From positions 1 through 6,892 of IMG/VR virus record IMGVR_UViG_2695420617_000001: DNA of 6,892 nt; one strand, 5' to 3'. Source of the DNA: a virus (Duplodnaviria > Heunggongvirae > Uroviricota > Caudoviricetes). A program made the position numbers and the translations under genes. The notes below the pieces were generated by a model. The model searched no databases. It saw only the letters and a program-made list of their open reading frames with translations, and was not told where the DNA came from. This document shows, one piece after another, positions 1 to 6,892 of the stretch. Numbering within the stretch: the stretch's first letter is position 1; the number at the start of each line of letters is the position of its first letter.

Positions 1-1461
1 ATTAGTAAGTGTCTTCGCCAGGAAGTCGAAAGAATCCTCGCGAGGCAATAACTTCAGGTCGTACTCACTCATTTGCTGATCAGAAAGCGGGGTATCGTAA
101 GTAGCAATGCCGTAGCGTGCATATTCATAATACGGGTCACCTTCATCAGGGCGCGGCAGAATTGCTTTGTTACCTTCAGGTATTGCGCCAGGGGCCGCCG
201 GACGCATTTGCAGGGCATATCGATATTCACCTACAGAGACTTCTGGTTCAGGCGAAGAGCTACCGGTATCCTCCGCTGGTTCAGGTTCGACGTTTTCCGG
301 TTTATGTTCTTCTGGTTGGACCAGGTATTCCGATACATTACCCGCTTTATAGGCTTTAAACAGCTTGCCGATCGCATCTGCCATGTCCACACCCTGTATG
401 GATTTAGCCTTGATCATGTACACGCTGCCATCCGAATCGGTTAACTGGATATACCCTTCGCCGTCCTCAATGAATTGCTTCATTGATGCACCATTACTGA
501 GCGTCACTTCCCCGTTCATATGCATACGATTTTTGATACTGGCAAGGCGATCCGTCATCGCGCGAGAGTGTCCACCAGTCGTCCCCGCAGGAGCAATGGT
601 ATCGCGCCCACCAGTGCGATTGAGCTGATCAATCTCCGTCTGCAAACGCTCATTCTCTTCATAAAGAGAATCCGCTTCCGATGCAACAGCGTTAATTTTC
701 TGCTCCAGATCTACCTTCTGCCCTTCTACCGCTGCCACCTGATCCACGAGGTCGCTCATGGCATCCTCTTTCTGGTCACTATCAGCCTGTAGTTGGGTTA
801 TTTCATCAACAAGGGCTTTTTTCTTCTTCTGCGCACGCTGAAATTTTGCCGAGTTTTTCTCTGCAAGGTTGGCAAGTTTCATGGTGACCTGCGCCAGCGT
901 CATATCACGTCCACTCATCGGAGCAACGGTGTGAGTAACGTCTTTTTTATTCAGTAAGAACTGGAAAGCAACCAGCGTATCGCTATTGGTGATCCGGTTT
1001 TCCGCTGTCGGGCTATGAAACAGAATGCTGATAGTCTGACCATCACTGAGCGGAATAATGGCTGGCAGGACCGGCAGCCCGTTAACGTTACGTGCCCGGC
1101 CAATTTCAGCACCGCCGATCGCGCGCGCGCCGCTCTGGGCCACATCCCCCGTTTTATCACTCCCCGCAGAGATTCCGGTACCATTCAGCTTCTGGTTCAA
1201 TGCCCGGACAAATGCCTGCATGGTCCGGTGTAACTGCAAACGAGTAGAACTAATCGCCTCCAGTAAATCCGTAGCACACCAGTGGATCGGCGTGTCATAG
1301 AAGAACGTAGCCTCGATTTCCTCCAGGGTGTTGGATTCCGTCATCAGATAGCGGTCCTCACCGGCCATTAATGCGCGATATTCATCATCAGTCACTGGCG
1401 GGGGAAGCACGTCAAGCCCAGGCTTGATCGTCACCCCTTTATTGATATTGAACTGTTCCAT
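1..1461 (-). CDS. Large structural/antirestriction-type protein, DarA-like (P1 dar operon); partial, C-terminal part lies beyond the window start
   Basis: Hand translation of the minus strand gives one uninterrupted frame from ATG (complement of 1459-1461) to position 1, about 487 codons, beginning MEQFNINKGVTIKPGLDVLPPPVTDDEYRALMAGEDRY. An AGGAA Shine-Dalgarno sits 7 nt upstream. It is missing from the ORF track only because no stop occurs inside the window. The many short plus-strand ORFs at 73-1300 are antisense shadows. It shares the motif TL..V....A.KNSAKFQ followed by a coiled-coil with the upstream 203-aa ORF. The DarA name rests on recalled P1 gene order and the Hdf paralogy, not on a search. 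Confidence 0.6.
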   Translation of the reverse strand, partial: MEQFNINKGVTIKPGLDVLPPPVTDDEYRALMAGEDRYLMTESNTLEEIEATFFYDTPIHWCATDLLEAISSTRLQLHRTMQAFVRALNQKLNGTGISAGSDKTGDVAQSGARAIGGAEIGRARNVNGLPVLPAIIPLSDGQTISILFHSPTAENRITNSDTLVAFQFLLNKKDVTHTVAPMSGRDMTLAQVTMKLANLAEKNSAKFQRAQKKKKALVDEITQLQADSDQKEDAMSDLVDQVAAVEGQKVDLEQKINAVASEADSLYEENERLQTEIDQLNRTGGRDTIAPAGTTGGHSRAMTDRLASIKNRMHMNGEVTLSNGASMKQFIEDGEGYIQLTDSDGSVYMIKAKSIQGVDMADAIGKLFKAYKAGNVSEYLVQPEEHKPENVEPEPAEDTGSSSPEPEVSVGEYRYALQMRPAAPGAIPEGNKAILPRPDEGDPYYEYARYGIATYDTPLSDQQMSEYDLKLLPREDSFDFLAKTLTN

Positions 1462-1462
1462 G

Positions 1463-2065
1463 TTAATTTCCTGCTTTCAGTTGCTTAAGACGGCGTTTGA
1501 GTTCGCCATTTCGGGCCTTTTCGTTATTGAGTCGGCCGGTATCCTTATCCAGCTTCGCCCGCAAATCAGTGATCTGCTGTTGATGGAAAGACACCGAGTT
1601 CTGCGCTGATTTATAAGCGGCAACCACCTGAGCATTCCGCTGTTTTGCCTCTTGCAGGCGCTGAAAGTTGGATTTTACTGCCGGTTTCTTGTCTACCGGA
1701 TTGGCAACACGTTTCGCTTTGGCGATCAGTGATTTCTGGAATTTTGCGGAGTTTTTGCGGGCCGCTTGCCCCATGACGGTACCAAGCGTCTTGATATCCG
1801 GCGACTGAGCGTTAGGAATAGCTTTTCCATTCAGCCTCACAGACGATATATCGCCAGTATCGTTTACCTGTATGGCAAGAATTTGTCCGTCGTTAAGAAC
1901 CAGCTTTGCGGTTTTAACTTTAACGCCATCTTTCGTTGTTGCGCGGTTGCTGGAGTCAACCTCAATTACCGTAACACCGGTTTTATTGATCGCCGCGATA
2001 AGGGATTTCAGCCCCTTTTCATTAACCTGGTCAAAATCGACCGTTGCATACTTATTTTTCGTCAT
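1463..2065 (-). CDS. Hdf-like protein (homolog of DarA fragment), paralogous to the downstream large ORF
   Basis: Track ORF 1463..2074 (-). I prefer the second ATG (2063-2065), which has AGGA 8 nt upstream; the first ATG at 2072-2074 has no SD. Stop TAA at 1463-1465 is 1 nt from the next gene's ATG (TAAcATG). Lysine-rich C-terminal coiled-coil. Shares KNSAKFQ and flanking residues with the large ORF at 1-1461. Confidence 0.6.
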   Translation of the reverse strand: MTKNKYATVDFDQVNEKGLKSLIAAINKTGVTVIEVDSSNRATTKDGVKVKTAKLVLNDGQILAIQVNDTGDISSVRLNGKAIPNAQSPDIKTLGTVMGQAARKNSAKFQKSLIAKAKRVANPVDKKPAVKSNFQRLQEAKQRNAQVVAAYKSAQNSVSFHQQQITDLRAKLDKDTGRLNNEKARNGELKRRLKQLKAGN

Positions 2066-2495
2066 CTGACACATCCTGTGCGAGATTTATTACGTAACTT
2101 CTGCGGATTTGCTGAGTAACAGGGAAAATCCGATACAACGGGTTAATGAACGAGTCGCCATGCGTAACCATGACGTTGAAATGCCACAGCCGTTCTCCTT
2201 TACCCATATATTCAGTGGGTATGTACAACCATTCACTGTTTTCGCCCTGTTCAGCCGACGTCAAACAACGTTGTTCGCCTTCAATCACTGTCGTTGGCTT
2301 CTGAACATCGCGGATCCAATATCTGACCGTTGCGCCGCGCAAAAACGGGAATTTAGACCGGTATTTGAACGGCACCCGGATGAAACCCGGTTTAATTTCC
2401 ACATCACCAAGTTCTAAATGCGTGATGTCCTTGCGTTTTAGCAAATAGCGATCGGCTAAGGCTAACGCAAGAGCGCATACACCCCAGCCAATCAT
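2052..2495 (-). CDS. Putative antiholin/lysis regulator (LydB-like), N-terminal signal-anchor
   Basis: 147-aa ORF with hydrophobic N-terminus MIGWGVCALALALA. Its ATG overlaps the stop of the upstream holin-like gene in an ATGA arrangement (2492-2495), indicating translational coupling. Assignment is by position after a holin and recalled P1 lydA-lydB order; no search done. Confidence 0.45.
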   Translation of the reverse strand: MIGWGVCALALALADRYLLKRKDITHLELGDVEIKPGFIRVPFKYRSKFPFLRGATVRYWIRDVQKPTTVIEGEQRCLTSAEQGENSEWLYIPTEYMGKGERLWHFNVMVTHGDSFINPLYRIFPVTQQIRRSYVINLAQDVSDDEK

Positions 2496-2821
2496 TTCCC
2501 ACCTCCCTTTTTCACCAAACTTGTAAGAACATTCAGAATGCTATCGATATTCACTCGTTTCATCCCTGAAATCACCTCATGACCGTTATTGCTGGCTATC
2601 GTTACCATTAAGTACGTAATTGATAACTCCCAGCCCTCGTGTTGCCCCAATAGGTACGCCACCGCGCCAGCTGTCACTGCAACAAAGATCTCCGTAACCA
2701 ATCCCAACAAATTGCCAGACTGGCGACCGTCTCGGACATCCATCAGGAACGTGCCTATCCCACCAATTACTGAAAGCAGGAGCGCAATAGCAACTGGAGC
2801 TAATTCCTGTGTGTCAAGCAC
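2492..2821 (-). CDS. Holin-like membrane protein (LydA-like)
   Basis: 109-aa ORF with GTG start (complement of 2819-2821) and a strong AGGAGG SD 6 nt upstream. Two to three predicted transmembrane segments (LAPVAIALLLSVIGGIGTFL, LLGLVTEIFVAVTAGAVAYLL) and a short charged C-terminal tail (KKGGGK), as is typical of holins. Confidence 0.6.
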   Translation of the reverse strand: MLDTQELAPVAIALLLSVIGGIGTFLMDVRDGRQSGNLLGLVTEIFVAVTAGAVAYLLGQHEGWELSITYLMVTIASNNGHEVISGMKRVNIDSILNVLTSLVKKGGGK

Positions 2822-2895
2822 AAGTTCCCTCCTACGTTGTCAGGAGGTAATGGTATGCAAAGTAACTTCTCAACCGGTTATGTTGCATAAGAGAC

Positions 2896-3159
2896 TTACC
2901 TATTCAACCGACTTTTGGAACCTTCAATAATAAGCCTGCTATTGGCGCTGAAAATAAGAACCATGCAGCTCTGAAGGCTTTCATTCATGTCCTTATATTC
3001 CGCGAGATACATGCCAATAAAGCCAGCAAGTACGGCGGAAATACATTCGGCCAGCAATTTCTTGCATGAGGACTCGTAACGGTTTTCACATAGCCCACTC
3101 AAATACGAATACACCCCACCAAGAAGGGATAACATCACGATATGTACATAAAATGTCAT
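2896..3159 (-). CDS. Small hypothetical membrane protein (87 aa), first gene of the minus-strand operon
   Basis: ORF with ATG at 3157-3159 and a weak AGGT SD. Two hydrophobic stretches (VHIVMLSLLGGVYSYLSGL, LLAECISAVLAGFIGMYLAEY). Same strand as the lysis/dar genes. Function unknown. Confidence 0.4.
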   Translation of the reverse strand: MTFYVHIVMLSLLGGVYSYLSGLCENRYESSCKKLLAECISAVLAGFIGMYLAEYKDMNESLQSCMVLIFSANSRLIIEGSKSRLNR

Positions 3160-3286
3160 TTTTTACCTATACAACAGTAAGTTGAACAACATTTGAGAAC
3201 GGTATGCACTTTGTGATTTCCACACACACTGGTTTTGTTAATTAAAACCTGTAGCTTGCAATAAATAACGATAGTGGGCAGAAAAT

Positions 3287-3472
3287 ATGCTAATAGGCTA
3301 TGTACGCATATAGACAAATGAACAAAACACAGCTATGCAGTGAAAAGCACTTGAAAGCGCAGGATGTGAGCTAATTTTTGCGAATAAGGCGAGCAGCAAA
3401 AAGGCTGGGCACCCTAGTTTAAAAAAGGTTCTGCGTATGCTTTCCAGAGGTGATACCCTAGTCTCGGACTAG
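3287..3472 (+). pseudogene. Decayed 5' remnant of a Cin/Gin-type serine invertase gene (two in-frame stops, 3' part deleted)
   Basis: Plus-strand translation from ATG 3287: MLIGYVRI*TNEQNTAMQ*KALESAGCELIFANKASSKKAGHPSLKKVLRMLSRGDTLV, then unrelated sequence. This aligns over about 59 codons with the intact invertase in this window (MQIGYIRVSTNDQNTDLQRNALNCAGCELIFEDKISGTKSARPGLKKLLRTLSEGDTLV), with TAG at codon 9 and TGA at codon 19. Homology ends at 3463, exactly at the left arm of a palindrome. Confidence 0.75.
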
Positions 3473-3474
3473 GG
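3456..3474. repeat. Perfect palindrome CCCTAGTC-tcg-GACTAGGG at the invertase-remnant breakpoint
   Basis: Arms 3456-3463 and 3467-3474 are exact reverse complements with a 3-nt spacer. The left arm is the last recognisable invertase codons (ccc tag tc = ..T L V). No flanking T-run on either strand, so it is not a typical intrinsic terminator. Confidence 0.7.
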
Positions 3475-3594
3475 ACAACATTTCGAGGACAGTTTTCATT
3501 AGCGGTCAGCAGGCGCTAGATACATCGAATTGATGTGCCGCGCGATAAATGTACCTATTCTATCAAGATAAATTACACCGACGCGGCATTAGAA

Positions 3595-4167
3595 TTACAG
3601 CTCAGATTGAGTTTGGCGCTTCTCTACAGGATGATAACGATAAATCGTCGATACACCGATATCGTAAATAATTGCCAACTGTTTCCTGCTGTAGCCATTT
3701 TCGATCAACCTCGCTATTTGCTCATGTTGTTCTTTTGTCAACTTCGGGCGACGTCCGCCAATGCGTCCCTGTTCGCGTGCAGCTGCCAGTCCGGCCAGTG
3801 TTCTCTCAACAATTAATTCACGTTCCATTTCTGCTAAAGCACCCATGACATGAAAAAAGAAACGCCCCATGGGTGTTGATGTGTCAATACTGTCTGTCAG
3901 ACTACGGAAATTAACACCTTTTTCCCGCAACTCCTCTATAAGCGTGATAAGGTGTTTCATACTTCTGCCAAGCCTATCCAGCTTCCAGACAACCAGCGTA
4001 TCTCCTTCTGATAACGTTCTGAGCAGCTTTTTCAAGCCTGGTCTGGCTGACTTTGTTCCGCTTATTTTATCTTCAAAAATCAGTTCACATCCTGCGCAGT
4101 TCAGTGCATTTCTTTGTAAATCTGTGTTTTGGTCATTTGTTGACACACGAATGTAGCCAATTTGCAT
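3595..4167 (-). CDS. Serine DNA invertase (site-specific recombinase, Pin/Min/Cin/Gin/Hin family)
   Basis: 190 aa from ATG (complement of 4165-4167), with GAGG SD about 9 nt upstream; the track's TTG at 4176 is probably not the start. Hallmark N-terminus MQIGYIRVSTNDQ with the catalytic serine context, then DTLVVWKLDRLGRS, MGRFFFHVMGALAEMERELIVERT, GRIGGRRPKL and a C-terminal helix-turn-helix (GYSRKQLAIIYDIGVSTIYR). Closest by memory to the Pin/Min subfamily. Confidence 0.93.
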   Translation of the reverse strand: MQIGYIRVSTNDQNTDLQRNALNCAGCELIFEDKISGTKSARPGLKKLLRTLSEGDTLVVWKLDRLGRSMKHLITLIEELREKGVNFRSLTDSIDTSTPMGRFFFHVMGALAEMERELIVERTLAGLAAAREQGRIGGRRPKLTKEQHEQIARLIENGYSRKQLAIIYDIGVSTIYRYHPVEKRQTQSEL

Positions 4168-4221
4168 GAAAAACAACCTCTTTGTTTAGTTAAAAATACA
4201 TCGTTGGTATAGGTAGGGATT

Positions 4222-4247
4222 AAGACTAAAACGTTGGTTTGGGGGAA
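4222..4247 (+). other. Invertase crossover site 1 (26 bp: 12-bp half-sites flanking a 2-bp core), boundary site next to the invertase gene
   Basis: AAGACTAAAACG-TT-GGTTTGGGGGAA. The inner AAAACG/xx/GGTTT pattern matches hix/gix/cix-type sites (for example hixL TTCTTGAAAACC-AA-GGTTTTTGATAA). It lies about 55 bp upstream of the invertase start. Confidence 0.7.
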
Positions 4248-4706
4248 GGCTCAGCATTGCCTGTTGGCGTGCCTGTTCCGTGGCCCTCAGCCACTCCGCC
4301 AACGGGGTGGCTGAAATGCAATGGTGCAGCATTTTCTTCTGAAAAGTACCCAAATCTGGCAAAGGCTTACCCTACTAATAAATTGCCGGATCTACGGGGC
4401 GAATTTATTCGCGGCTGGGATGACGGGCGGGGGATTGACTCTGGCCGTAATTTATTATCTGCACAGAATGATGCAATTCAGAATATTGTTGGTTCTTTCG
4501 GGCGTACTCAGCTTTTTAGAGATGTACTTAGTTCAGGGCCATTTAGTCAACATGGTCAAGTATTATCTACAGGCCTAAAGGAAACGGAAATTATTGAGGG
4601 TTATGGCTCTTATAACTGGACATTCGACGCCTCTCGCTCAGTTCGTACAGCATCTGAAACCCGTCCCCGTAATATTGCATTTAATTACATCGTAAGGGCG
4701 GCATAA
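4236..4706 (+). CDS. Tail fibre C-terminal cassette A (start-codon-less gene segment, silent in this configuration)
   Basis: Open frame from the right half of site 1 to TAA 4704-4706: GLGEGSALPVGVPVPWPSATPPTGWLKCNGAAFSSEKYPNLAKAYPTNKLPDLRGEFIRGWDDGRG, a unique core, then ETRPRNIAFNYIVRAA. The collar-like LPDLRGEFIRGWDDGRG motif is typical of phage tail fibres. No ATG or RBS; the track's M is a TTG. Confidence 0.8.
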   Translation, partial: GLGEGSALPVGVPVPWPSATPPTGWLKCNGAAFSSEKYPNLAKAYPTNKLPDLRGEFIRGWDDGRGIDSGRNLLSAQNDAIQNIVGSFGRTQLFRDVLSSGPFSQHGQVLSTGLKETEIIEGYGSYNWTFDASRSVRTASETRPRNIAFNYIVRAA

Positions 4707-4725
4707 AAACGTTGGTTTAGGGGAA
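4700..4725 (+). other. Invertase crossover site 2
   Basis: GGCATAAAAACG-TT-GGTTTAGGGGAA, same orientation as site 1. The left half-site contains the TAA stop of cassette A. Confidence 0.75.
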
Positions 4726-5175
4726 GGCTCGGCGCTGCCCGTTGGCGTGCCTGTTCCGTGGCCCTCCGCCACACCACCAACGGGGTGGCTGAAATGTAAC
4801 GGAGCAGCATTTTCTTCTGAAAAGTACCCAAATCTGGCAAAGGTTTACCCAACGTTAAAATTACCTGATTTACGCGGTGAGTTTATCCGTGGTTGGGATG
4901 ATGGGCGAGGTGTGGATGCGGGAAGGGTCATCTTAAGCATACAGGGGTGGTTAACAGGAAGTCATTATCATAATATTCGGTCATGGGACGCGTGGGATAA
5001 CACGGTATTGGTGCCAAATGACAGAGGGGGGGATAGTCTGTTGTCGACAGATAACGCCGTCCAAGAAGGAGCGATTAATGGTAAATTTACCAGTCAATAC
5101 AGAACGGAGTTATCTGGGGGGAATGAAACCCGCCCACGTAACATTGCCTTCAATTATATTGTGAGAGCAGCATAA
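4714..5175 (+). CDS. Tail fibre C-terminal cassette B (start-codon-less), translationally coupled to tfa
   Basis: The frame is open from site 2 (GLGEGSALPVGVPVPWPSATPPTGWLKCNG...); the track begins at an internal GTG at 4747. Unique core WLTGSHYHNIRSWDAWDNTVLVPNDRGGDSLLSTDNAVQEG. Ends ETRPRNIAFNYIVRAA with TAA overlapping the tfa ATG (TAATG at 5173-5177). Confidence 0.8.
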   Translation, partial: GLGEGSALPVGVPVPWPSATPPTGWLKCNGAAFSSEKYPNLAKVYPTLKLPDLRGEFIRGWDDGRGVDAGRVILSIQGWLTGSHYHNIRSWDAWDNTVLVPNDRGGDSLLSTDNAVQEGAINGKFTSQYRTELSGGNETRPRNIAFNYIVRAA

Positions 5176-5786
5176 TGGATAATGCGATATTAAATAGCGA
5201 ACTTATAGCCATACAGGCAGGAAACATTATCGTTTATAACTATGATGGTGGTAATCGGGAATATATTTCTGCATCAACTGAATATCTTGCTGTTGGCGTT
5301 GGTATTCCGGCAAATTCTTGTTTGGATGCTCCAGGCTCACATAAAGCAGGTTATGCGATTCTCCGTTCAGAGGATTTAAGTTCATGGGAGTATGTGCCAG
5401 ATCATCGTGGCGAAACTGTCTATAGCATTGACACTGGGAATCCCGAAGAAATCACGGTGTTGGGTGACTATCCGGAAAATACAACCACTATCGCCCCGCT
5501 AACACCATACGACAAATGGGATGGAGAGAAATGGGTGGTTGATACTGAGGCTCAACATAGTGCAGCTGTAGAGGCAGCAGAAACAAAACGTCAGTCATTG
5601 ATTGATACTGCGATGGATTCCATTAGTCTGATTCAGTTGAAATTACGGGCTGGACGGAAGTTGACGCAGGCAGAAACCACGCAGCTTAACTCCGTGCTAG
5701 ATTATATAGACGAGCTGAACGCGATGGATTTAACCACGGCACCAGATCTCAACTGGCCTGAAAAACAACTTTCTACAGCCAGTTGA
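5175..5786 (+). CDS. tfa: Tail fibre assembly protein (Tfa; lambda Tfa / Mu U family chaperone)
   Basis: 203 aa. Recalled lambda Tfa motifs match: IPANS..D.AP, (E/P)DHRG(K/E)TVY, Y(Q/D)KW(N/D)G..WV.DTEA and C-terminal T(S/T)APD(I/L)(E/N)WP. TAATG overlap with cassette B. Confidence 0.9.
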   Translation: MDNAILNSELIAIQAGNIIVYNYDGGNREYISASTEYLAVGVGIPANSCLDAPGSHKAGYAILRSEDLSSWEYVPDHRGETVYSIDTGNPEEITVLGDYPENTTTIAPLTPYDKWDGEKWVVDTEAQHSAAVEAAETKRQSLIDTAMDSISLIQLKLRAGRKLTQAETTQLNSVLDYIDELNAMDLTTAPDLNWPEKQLSTAS

Positions 5787-5791
5787 TATAA

Positions 5792-6298
5792 TTAATCCGC
5801 CCTCACAATATAATTAAATGCAATATTACGAGGGCGGGTTTCTGTACCTACATTTCCACTAATTTCACCATAACGTTTAACACTACGAGAGCTAATAGCT
5901 CGTAGTGAGGAAGGCACCTTATGACCGGGTTCGTCCGTTTTAACTATTCCCCCGTCACCGTATGTAGCTAGTATTCCTGGATTTACGCCTTCCCGTGCAC
6001 TTCCTGCGGCGAGTCCGTCCCCTGTCCATAATTCCATATAGTGTGCATGGTCCAAAATTGTGTGTGGCTGCCAATTAAGCAAAGCGCGGCCAGCATCCAC
6101 CCCGCGCCCATCATCCCAGCCGCGAATAAATTCTCCCCGTAAATCCGGTAATTTATTGGTGGGGTAGGCTTTTGCCAGTTTGGGATACATTTCAGAAGAA
6201 AATGCTGCACCATTGCATTTCAGCCAGCCCGTTGGTGGTGTTTCTAAGGGCCACGGAACGGGCACGCCAACGGGCAATGCTGAGCCTTCCCCCAAACC
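5792..6298 (-). CDS. Tail fibre C-terminal cassette C (start-codon-less, inverted orientation)
   Basis: Minus-strand frame from site 3 to stop (complement of 5792-5794): GEGSALPVGVPVPWPLETPPTGWLKCNGAAFSSEMYPKLAKAYPTNKLPDLRGEFIRGWDDGRG, a unique core, then ETRPRNIAFNYIVRAD. Its stop is 5 bp from the tfa stop (convergent). Confidence 0.8.
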   Translation of the reverse strand, partial: GLGEGSALPVGVPVPWPLETPPTGWLKCNGAAFSSEMYPKLAKAYPTNKLPDLRGEFIRGWDDGRGVDAGRALLNWQPHTILDHAHYMELWTGDGLAAGSAREGVNPGILATYGDGGIVKTDEPGHKVPSSLRAISSRSVKRYGEISGNVGTETRPRNIAFNYIVRAD

Positions 6299-6312
6299 AA
6301 CGTTTTTATGCC
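6287..6312 (-). other. Invertase crossover site 3 (inverted relative to sites 1 and 2)
   Basis: Plus strand TTCCCCCAAACC-AA-CGTTTTTATGCC, which is the reverse complement of GGCATAAAAACG-TT-GGTTTGGGGGAA. It contains the stop codon of cassette D. Confidence 0.75.
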
Positions 6313-6785
6313 GCCCTTACGATGTAATTAAATGCGATATTTCGTGGACGGGTTTCACTCCCGCCAGTATTACCAATACTCCCTCGAGAATGAAGTGTCG
6401 GTGATGGAATCAAATTCCCTCCTGTATTTGAGGCATCAAGCCCCCGTCCTTGTGTGTATGTTTTTTTGAAAATTGTCGCCAGCTCCCATTCATCTTTTGT
6501 GTCGTAACCATCATTGGCTACAACAATATGTCGGTGCTTTTCCAGCATTCCTGTCTGAATGCTCAATAAAGCACGTCCTGTATCAATGCCGCGTCCATCA
6601 TCCCAGCCACGAATAAACTCACCGCGTAAATCAGGTAATTTTAACGTTGGGTAAGCCTTTGCCAGATTTGGGTACTTTTCAGAAGAAAATGCTGCACCAT
6701 TGCATTTCAGCCAGCCTGTTGGCGGAGTGGCTGAAGGCCACGGAACAGGGACACCAACAGGTAATGCAGAGCCTTCTCCCAAACC
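6306..6785 (-). CDS. Tail fibre C-terminal cassette D (start-codon-less, inverted orientation)
   Basis: Minus-strand frame from site 4 to stop (complement of 6306-6308). Same conserved N-module (..AKAYPTLKLPDLRGEFIRGWDDGRG), unique core, then ETRPRNIAFNYIVRAA. Confidence 0.8.
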   Translation of the reverse strand, partial: GLGEGSALPVGVPVPWPSATPPTGWLKCNGAAFSSEKYPNLAKAYPTLKLPDLRGEFIRGWDDGRGIDTGRALLSIQTGMLEKHRHIVVANDGYDTKDEWELATIFKKTYTQGRGLDASNTGGNLIPSPTLHSRGSIGNTGGSETRPRNIAFNYIVRAA

Positions 6786-6799
6786 AACGTTTTTATGCC
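6774..6799 (-). other. Invertase crossover site 4 (inverted relative to sites 1 and 2)
   Basis: Plus strand TTCTCCCAAACC-AA-CGTTTTTATGCC. It contains the stop codon of the partial cassette E. Confidence 0.75.
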
Positions 6800-6803
6800 G
6801 CCC

Positions 6804-6892
6804 TTACGATATAATTAAACGCAATGTTACGAGGACGAATGGTTACATAATTAACCCCATCACCTCGTGAAGGCCCTGCAAATGAAAAACGG
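6804..6892 (-). CDS. Tail fibre C-terminal cassette E, 3' end only (continues beyond the window end)
   Basis: Minus-strand translation of 6892..6804 gives ..RFSFAGPSRGDGVNYVTIRPRNIAFNYIVRAA then stop (complement of 6804-6806). It has the shared C-terminal motif but a different preceding sequence, so it is a fifth distinct cassette. Confidence 0.65.

Follow-up and report, generated by a model that had tools for sequence, protein, structure and literature searches.

Two adjacent ORFs, one short and one long, are read from the minus strand at the left end of this viral DNA, next to lysis genes. The locus raises the question whether they form a P1-type hdf-darA antirestriction module, in which the short gene would be a duplicated fragment of the long one. 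The window (the whole stretch of DNA analysed, 6,892 nucleotides) is colinear with phage P1 over positions 1-3463, and DNA identity to P1 is about 98% in the dar and lyd genes. Positions 1-2821 almost certainly hold the promoter-proximal genes of a late operon, lydA-lydB-hdf-darA, belonging to a P1-like (Punavirus) phage-plasmid, and no feature of the sequence speaks against this. The operon system is already known, and the finding is in this sense an ordinary one.

Organization of the lyd/dar locus

All the features of the locus are given by window positions and lie on the minus strand. Their order is lydC, LPdar, lydA, lydB, hdf, darA, and matches the P1 annotation gene for gene; the resemblance to the P1 lyd-dar late operon pointed out in the initial annotation is a true one. 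Gene order, lengths, overlaps and late promoter are those of the P1 dar operon (lydA-lydB-hdf-darA-ddrA-ddrB, NC_005856 27542-31230). Amino acid identity to the P1 counterparts is 98% for Hdf, 97% for DarA, 98% for LydB and 100% for LydA, but only 67% for LydC. The protein searches against P1 Hdf and DarA that had been recommended confirm that the names first given to the two ORFs are correct. Successive stop and start codons overlap or abut throughout lydA-lydB-hdf-darA, and hdf is, as in P1, flanked by lydB and darA and belongs to the operon that LPdar drives. The window holds this operon only through darA codon 487, and the positions of ddrA and ddrB fall past its left edge.

The lydC gene (2896..3159) encodes an accessory holin with a Pfam Phage_holin_3_3 domain (E 1.2e-9). 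The role of LydC in P1 has been described (PMC9025707), and the gene has a transcription unit of its own, upstream of the dar operon. The late promoter LPdar (2850..2868) features the -22 box AAGTTACTT and the -10 sequence TACCAT. It is annotated in P1 at NC_005856 31212-31230, and the interval 2780-2878 spanning it in the window is base-for-base identical to P1. A scan of positions 1-3600 for sigma-70 promoters yielded one site, inside lydC, versus 5.3 expected in shuffled sequences, and is uninformative; P1 late promoters are of another type. Equally uninformative is the terminator scan (5 sites, 3.2 expected). No match was found in the whole window at Rfam gathering thresholds. Downstream of LPdar, lydA (2492..2821) encodes a holin (Pfam Phage_holin_3_3, PF16083; PHROG 1527 holin, E 4.3e-49), and is followed by lydB (2052..2495), encoding the LydA antagonist, or antiholin (Pfam LydB PF16084, E 4.6e-103; PHROG 1898). 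The two genes overlap by 4 nt (ATGA), and the 3' end of lydB overlaps the start of hdf. A LydA-type class II holin is here followed by LydB, and the holin/antiholin-like pair initially placed upstream on the same strand is real.

The maximal ORF of hdf (1463..2074) encodes 203 amino acids. The real start is probably the ATG at 2065, which would give a protein of 200 residues: this second ATG has the sequence AGGA 8 nt upstream, hdf is annotated as a 603-nt gene in phage P7 and in most plasmid records, and the N-termini of the Hdf proteins of phages D6 and JK004 align to it. Hdf differs from P1 Hdf by 5 substitutions, matches PHROG 1620 "Hdf-like antirestriction" (E 2.8e-79), and aligns at full length to PDB chain 9ukm_H (E 8e-121). 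A single DarA_N domain, the region paralogous to DarA, is found at aa 13-109 (1748..2038; Pfam PF18788, E 1.5e-21, 76.9 bits versus a cut-off of 27). The C-terminal alpha-helix domain (aa 135-203, 1466..1672) aligns in hhalign to DarA residues ~215-281. NCBIfam release 20 contains no model matching Hdf, LydA or LydB.

The two ORFs are adjacent as reported, since darA starts at 1461, one base past the stop of hdf. The gene is open from this ATG to the left edge of the window (1..1461), which comprises codons 1-487 of 639; the C-terminal 152 codons fall past the edge. Despite the truncation, DarA scores 851.3 bits against the NCBIfam equivalog NF052326 anti_RE_DarA (cut-off 350), and 1046 bits against PDB chain 9ukm_I. 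Both Hdf and DarA match chains in 9ukm/9vz0, the cryo-EM entries for the P1 head. The visible part of the protein includes the N-terminal propeptide region, DarA_N (aa 66-204, 850..1266; Pfam PF18788, E 8.8e-43, 145.5 bits versus a cut-off of 27), a helical, coiled-coil-like domain (~aa 201-283, 613..861), which hhalign aligns with the C-terminal helix domain of Hdf, and DarA_C (aa 412-472, 46..228; Pfam PF18789, E 8.3e-17). The profile searches, also recommended at the outset, agree with the naming through the DarA_N domains of both ORFs, the DarA equivalog and the Hdf-like PHROG. DarA differs from the P1 protein at 13 of the 487 visible residues. Eleven of the substitutions fall at residues 239-412, and one (V10M) is the single difference within residues 1-69.

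Plus-strand ORFs within 1-2074 (e.g. 73-444 and 1766-2119) have no counterpart in any annotated relative; they run antisense to the long genes of the minus strand and were discarded as artefacts.

Predicted role of Hdf and DarA

Function was transferred from P1 experiments because of the 97-98% protein identity. In published work on P1, Hdf and DarA are packaged into the head and protect against type I restriction (PMC12810830, PMC9024508). In the mechanism drawn from these two sources and from PMC5512222, Hdf and DarA would be produced in late infection and incorporated pairwise into the procapsid, and 55 DarA-Hdf pairs per head would line the inner capsid surface, at each penton-hexon junction. 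The N-terminal ~70 residues of DarA would be removed by the prohead protease (Pro). In the P1 head structure, the DarA_N region is the hexon-binding domain (DarA residues 70-382 were modelled), the alpha-helix domain of DarA is anchored to the inner capsid surface, and Hdf residues 135-203, also modelled, bind the same surface beside it (PMC12810830). The pairs would favour normal-sized heads and serve as the platform required for the other Dar proteins (DdrA, DdrB, DarB, Ulx) to be packaged, so that Hdf and DarA, by analogy with P1, would not be simply antirestriction factors, but also head-size determinants and packaging platforms. The darB and ulx genes are located elsewhere in P1 genomes. 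The N-terminal domains of Hdf and DarA would be in contact with the DNA inside the head. When infection begins, the Dar proteins are expected to exit the head with this DNA and to defend it in cis against type I restriction; for DarA, Hdf and DdrA the link would be to the EcoA and StySA families, and for DarB, Ulx and DdrB to the EcoB and EcoK families.

It is possible, though on balance doubtful, that Hdf and DarA are primarily capsid-assembly proteins, acting as auxiliary scaffold and in head-size control, and that antirestriction is only an indirect outcome of the recruitment into the head of the true effectors, DdrA, DdrB, DarB and Ulx. Deletion of either gene in P1 lowers normal heads from ~80% to ~15%, and all other Dar proteins are gone from the virions; the DarA-Hdf pair attaches to the capsid at penton-hexon junctions, and the N-terminus of DarA is cleaved beside the site where the major capsid protein is cut (PMC12810830). 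The same pairs, however, touch the DNA and are missing once the heads have emptied, as would fit their being ejected together with it (PMC12810830), and DarA_N domains have been found in phage "polyvalent" proteins that are carried into the host cell, a hint of an early role after injection (PMC5512222). The capsid-assembly view refines the accepted picture, and does not contradict it.

Keeping to the reading of Hdf and DarA as packaged antirestriction proteins, we infer that both genes would be functional in this element, because the frames are intact, selection is purifying and the promoter is unchanged. That they are decaying remnants which have lost function in a defective P1-like plasmid is very unlikely. 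Many P1-like plasmids are defective as phages, and deletions and IS-mediated rearrangements are found in many of them (PMC6906374); moreover, a dead remnant of cin is present inside the window, and the end of darA lies outside it. However, all five lyd/dar frames that the window contains are intact, dN/dS relative to P1 is 0.16 for hdf and 0.31 for darA, LPdar is identical to that of P1, and the full operon is present in close relatives.

Relationship between Hdf and DarA

The name Hdf is, we presume, a short form of "homolog of DarA fragment". The paralogy of the short and the long ORF, already proposed from the sequence, was upheld by three independent approaches as more than a chance similarity. 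BLASTP aligned Hdf and DarA at 31% identity over 90 aa (E 7e-4), and the same result was obtained for the Hdf/DarA pair of P1 itself. DarA_N was detected in both proteins, and hhalign aligned profiles of Hdf and DarA homologs with a probability of 94.8% (E 5.4e-8), matching Hdf 41-198 to DarA 121-281. The helical region lies within the aligned span, in accordance with the coiled-coil said to follow the shared motif. Both paralogs retain D62, Q64, N82 and F112 without variation in three phage lineages. These comparisons show Hdf to be an ancient paralog of an internal segment of DarA, the segment made of the DarA_N domain and of the helical domain that follows.

The heptapeptide KNSAKFQ is found exact in Hdf at residues 107-113 (nt 1736-1756) and in DarA at residues 202-208 (nt 838-858), and a shared exact word of that length occurred in 1 of 5000 shuffles. 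The longer motif initially described, TL(G/A).V....A.KNSAKFQ, held for the short ORF, but three more residues are present in the long ORF (TLAQVTMKLANLAEKNSAKFQ), and the motif is common to the two only if a 3-residue indel is admitted. As the strict motif fits Hdf only, the alignments were relied on instead. In the P1/P7 lineage the KNSAKFQ stretches of hdf and darA are identical at 19 of 21 DNA positions. As an exact shared heptapeptide, KNSAKFQ is specific to this lineage; D6 and JK004 do not keep it in this form. It may be imagined that KNSAKFQ is a lineage-specific functional site (e.g. a common DNA or capsid contact that micro gene conversion between the paralogs keeps alike) and that, together with the substitutions clustered at DarA 239-412, it gives the sublineage with the Min-type region described below a restriction-evasion spectrum or a head-size ratio unlike those of P1, but this is highly improbable; chance together with ordinary drift is the simpler reading.

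A chance or compositional resemblance between coiled-coils, with the large ORF encoding a scaffold or tape-measure-like protein and not Dar, is practically ruled out: the pairwise BLASTP score alone is modest, and DarA aa 194-283 weakly match generic coiled-coil families as well as SMC-type models, but the same globular domain, DarA_N, is above the curated threshold in both proteins, the profile alignment and the residues invariant in three lineages point the same way, and the large ORF is 97% identical to an experimentally characterised DarA.

The invertible region and the P1-like relatives

The right half of the window (3464-6892) appears, from its sequence organization, to be a multiple-inversion region of the p15B Min type. 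It hosts a Din-family serine invertase and more than two crossover sites, which are found in both orientations and flank alternative tail-fibre 3' cassettes. The sequence AAACCAACGTTT occurs in four exact copies, two per orientation, versus 0.09 expected, and each copy lies just 5' of a Collar-domain tail-fibre cassette. The region adjoining the lyd/dar genes is in this respect not P1-like: the invertase, which has Resolvase and HTH_7 domains, differs from cin, being 74% identical to Cin at the amino acid level and encoded in the opposite orientation. The invertase and lyd/dar modules are joined through a dead remnant of the 5' part of cin, which marks a recombination joint between exchangeable modules. 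The proposal that proximity of the invertase ties host-range switching to anti-defence finds no support, the invertase module being a separate transcription unit.

Identity of the window to MF510496.1, presumably the plasmid pMCR_SCKP-LL83, is 97.2%; the invertible segment of that plasmid has been reported to be 99% identical to p15B min (PMC5786510). The likeness of the window to p15B min (X62121) is an indirect one, by way of MF510496.1. The source element belongs to a sublineage featuring a p15B Min-type multi-cassette tail-fibre switch, and not the two-state C-segment of Cin.

P1-like phage-plasmids of this kind are very common in Enterobacteriaceae. Matches to the window were found in 637 PLSDB plasmids and in about half of the complete E. 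coli genomes, where the matches come mostly from the widespread invertase and tail-fibre parts; none of the records in three sequence collections covers the whole window unbroken. The discovery value of the locus is small, as the dar operon has been studied since 1987, the in-situ structures of Hdf and DarA have been solved (2026), and current annotation pipelines already name hdf and darA. The locus is rather a calibration point, in that a weak but real paralogy (31% identity) was recognised, and the system correctly named, from raw sequence.

The same lydA-lydB-hdf-darA-ddrA-ddrB order is found in two distant P1-like phages, D6 and Cronobacter phage JK004. In both, DarA_N is present in the two proteins, DarA_C in DarA, and the same residues are invariant; identity of Hdf is 78% in JK004 and only 33.5% in D6. 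Much closer are the odaE-darA region of P7 and the IncY P1-like phage-plasmids ph681355 (CP083412), pMCR_SCKP-LL83 (MF510496) and pGD27-62, which are 98-99.5% identical to the window in the lyd/dar region. The gene called odaE in P7 is hdf, with its start annotated at the second ATG. In ph681355, 99.5% identical, the operon continues with ddrA, ddrB and hxr, and ddrA and ddrB follow darA also in pGD27-62, D6 and JK004. The plasmids have, like the window, a reversed invertase and a multi-cassette tail-fibre region. The tail-fibre cassettes on the right side of the invertase are ordered and oriented differently from record to record, as expected for an invertible region.

Organization of the lyd-dar operon

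Positions 1-3463 are colinear by megablast with P1 (NC_005856, 28363-31836), and also with P7, SJ46, RCS47, JL22 and many others. ORF calling and the P1 annotation place on the minus strand, from right to left, lydC (accessory holin, 87 aa, 3159-2896), lydA (holin, 109 aa, 2821-2492), lydB (antiholin, 147 aa, 2495-2052), hdf (203 aa, 2074-1463) and darA, open to the left edge, of which 487 of 639 codons are visible (1461-1). The P1 annotation corresponds one-to-one with these genes, and it places the late promoter LPdar at 2868-2850 (minus strand). The region singled out in the initial annotation (1-2074) encloses exactly the last two ORFs, hdf and darA. lydA and lydB share an ATGA, the lydB 3' end overlaps hdf by 14-23 nt, and the darA ATG at 1461 lies a single base past the hdf stop (TAA-C-ATG). 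Overlapping and abutting stops and starts, as seen from lydA to darA, are a hallmark of operons with translational coupling.

Nucleotide identity to P1 across dar and lyd genes is 96-100% per 200-nt bin, and the LPdar stretch is identical base for base. At the amino acid level identity is 98% for Hdf, 97% for DarA, 98% for LydB and 100% for LydA. DarA passes the NCBIfam DarA equivalog model, although truncated by the window edge, and both Hdf and DarA have matching chains in 9ukm/9vz0, the cryo-EM entries of the P1 head. The names hdf and darA, and the proposed resemblance to the P1 lydA-lydB-dar operon, are thus correct, as judged by amino acid identity, gene order and the equivalog model. 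The dN/dS values relative to P1 (hdf 0.16, darA 0.31, lydB 0.16) indicate that these genes are under purifying selection. LydC stands apart, being only 67% identical to its P1 homolog, with 87 rather than 93 residues and indels at both gene ends. Far more diverged than the flanking lydA, the lydC region (2880-3200, minus strand) points to a mosaic boundary directly after LPdar.

The hdf start codon is probably the second ATG, at 2065 (MTKNKY, 200 aa), rather than the one at 2074. An AGGA is found 8 nt upstream of this ATG, which is used in P7, where hdf is annotated as odaE, and in most plasmid annotations; the Hdf N-termini of phages D6 and JK004 start at the same point in the alignment.

The closest relative over this part is the IncY plasmid ph681355 (99.5% identity across 1-4922). 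Its operon runs on past the point corresponding to the window edge, with a darA of 1920 nt followed by ddrA (366 nt), a gene of ddrB size (2988 nt) and one of hxr size, just as in P1, and pGD27-62 continues in the same way. The order lydA-lydB-hdf-darA-ddrA-ddrB, with the same Pfam domains, is found also in D6 (Hdf 33.5% identical) and in Cronobacter phage JK004 (Hdf 78% identical). The hdf-darA module is already known and very common, and both genes are named by the current PGAP annotation. Matches to some part of the window were found in 637 PLSDB plasmids and in 2706 of 5426 complete E. coli genomes, the number of genomes owing mostly to the invertase and tail-fibre parts, which are widespread. 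In the record of phage vB_EcoM-673R5 (ON470615.2, 4848-9160; 98% identical) darA, lydB and the invertase are annotated in fragments (for instance 'Hin1' and 'Hin2', and a 180-nt LydB), which suggests frameshift errors of that record, not biology.

Paralogy of Hdf and DarA

The short gene had been described as a duplicated fragment of the long one, and similarity searches bear this out, as Hdf matches an internal piece of DarA comprising a domain and the helices that follow. BLASTP aligns Hdf 44-115 with DarA 122-210 (31% identity, E 7e-4), and the same alignment is obtained from P1's own proteins. Pfam DarA_N is above its curated cut-off of 27 bits in both (Hdf 76.9, DarA 145.5), the PHROG 'Hdf-like' profile reaches also DarA 166-281, and profile-profile comparison of 4 Hdf with 3 DarA sequences pairs Hdf 41-198 with DarA 121-281 (probability 94.8%, E 5.4e-8). 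Since the pair and its order are kept in the distant D6 and JK004, the duplication predates the radiation of the P1-like group.

The shared motif was written as TL(G/A).V....A.KNSAKFQ. The heptapeptide KNSAKFQ is indeed exact in both proteins (Hdf 107-113, DarA 202-208), and when the short protein was shuffled 5000 times, only one shuffle had a word of that length in common with the long one, but the spacing fits the short ORF only, DarA having three additional residues between TLxxV and AxKNSAKFQ. Apart from this spacing, and from the role attributed to the invertase (see below), the observation was confirmed and its interpretation supported.

When the Hdf and DarA sequences of three lineages are aligned together, G33, D62, Q64, T73, L81, N82, F112, L192 and L199 are invariant. 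A 'conserved aspartate and NX+ motif' has been described for DarA-N by Iyer et al. (PMC5512222); D62 and N82-x-K/R would fit these residues. The exact KNSAKFQ is not common to Hdf and DarA in JK004 or D6. Its codons (1736-1756 in hdf, 838-858 in darA, both on the minus strand) are identical at 19 of 21 positions, amid dissimilar flanks; either coincidence or a short tract of gene conversion could account for this.

Roles expected from P1

Hdf, DarA, DdrA, DdrB, DarB and Ulx are P1 virion proteins (PMC9024508). In cryo-EM the inside of the capsid is lined at the penton-hexon junctions by 55 DarA-Hdf pairs, with the helix domains of both proteins anchored to the capsid and N-terminal domains towards the DNA; the pairs are gone after DNA ejection, and DarA residues 1-69 are unseen, consistent with cleavage by the prohead protease (PMC12810830). 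According to Piya et al. 2017, as relayed in PMC12810830, deletion of hdf or darA leaves virions devoid of every other Dar protein and lowers normal heads from ~80% to ~15%; protection from EcoA and StySA requires DarA, whereas EcoB and EcoK are countered by DarB, Ulx and DdrB. LydA acts as the principal holin and is antagonized by LydB, and a separate early promoter is predicted for lydC (PMC9025707).

With 97-98% identity and an identical promoter, no roles other than those in P1 can reasonably be expected: Hdf and DarA would form head-internal pairs, sustain Dar packaging and contribute to protection from type I restriction. That the two proteins serve chiefly as an assembly platform is a live reading, and would refine, not contradict, this accepted picture.

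The invertase and the tail-fibre inversion region

Synteny is conserved in that an invertase lies beside lydC/lydA in all of these phages (cin in P1, P7 and D6, a resolvase-family gene in JK004). In the window P1 homology stops abruptly at 3463, within a cin 5' remnant (3298-3463, plus strand; 176 nt) that shares ~90% identity with P1 and is interrupted at codon 9 by an in-frame TAG. The remnant still spans the stretch annotated in P1 as inversion enhancer (~3316-3387), and the P1 annotation notes a p15B segment resembling it. This end at 3463 marks a recombination joint where exchangeable modules meet. The gene for the intact serine invertase (3595-4176, minus strand; Resolvase and HTH_7 domains) is distinct from cin: its product shares 74% identity with P1 Cin and 71% with the invertase of JK004. 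The gene lies on the lyd/dar strand, in the orientation opposite to that of P1 cin. The suggestion that this adjacency ties host-range switching to anti-defence is unsupported: given the operon's own late promoter, the dead cin remnant and the different, reversed invertase, there is no sign of a functional unit with the dar operon.

The 4229-6892 region contains 200-280-nt repeats, direct and inverted. Alternative tail-fibre C-terminal cassettes with Collar domains are found at 4239-4706 and 4747-5175 (plus strand) and at 5792-6295 and 6306-6782 (minus strand), together with a Caudo_TAP tail-fibre assembly gene (5175-5786, plus strand) and the end of a fifth cassette (6793-6864, minus strand). 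The sequence AAACCAACGTTT occurs in four exact copies, two in each orientation (4229 and 4707, minus; 6294 and 6781, plus; 0.09 expected by chance), which lie directly 5' of cassettes and are candidate crossover sites. Cassettes differ in order between related records. This multi-cassette switch is already known biology: in P1-like plasmids with a reversed invertase the region has been identified as the Min multiple-inversion region of p15B, and reversed invertases of this kind are equated with p15B Min (PMC6906374, PMC5786510). The best plasmid match, MF510496.1, is apparently the one reported in PMC5786510. The invertible tail-fibre region of the S. Typhi plasmid ph681355 harbours an ISEcp1-blaCTX-M-15 insertion (CP083412.1, 12549-14942), of which the window is free.
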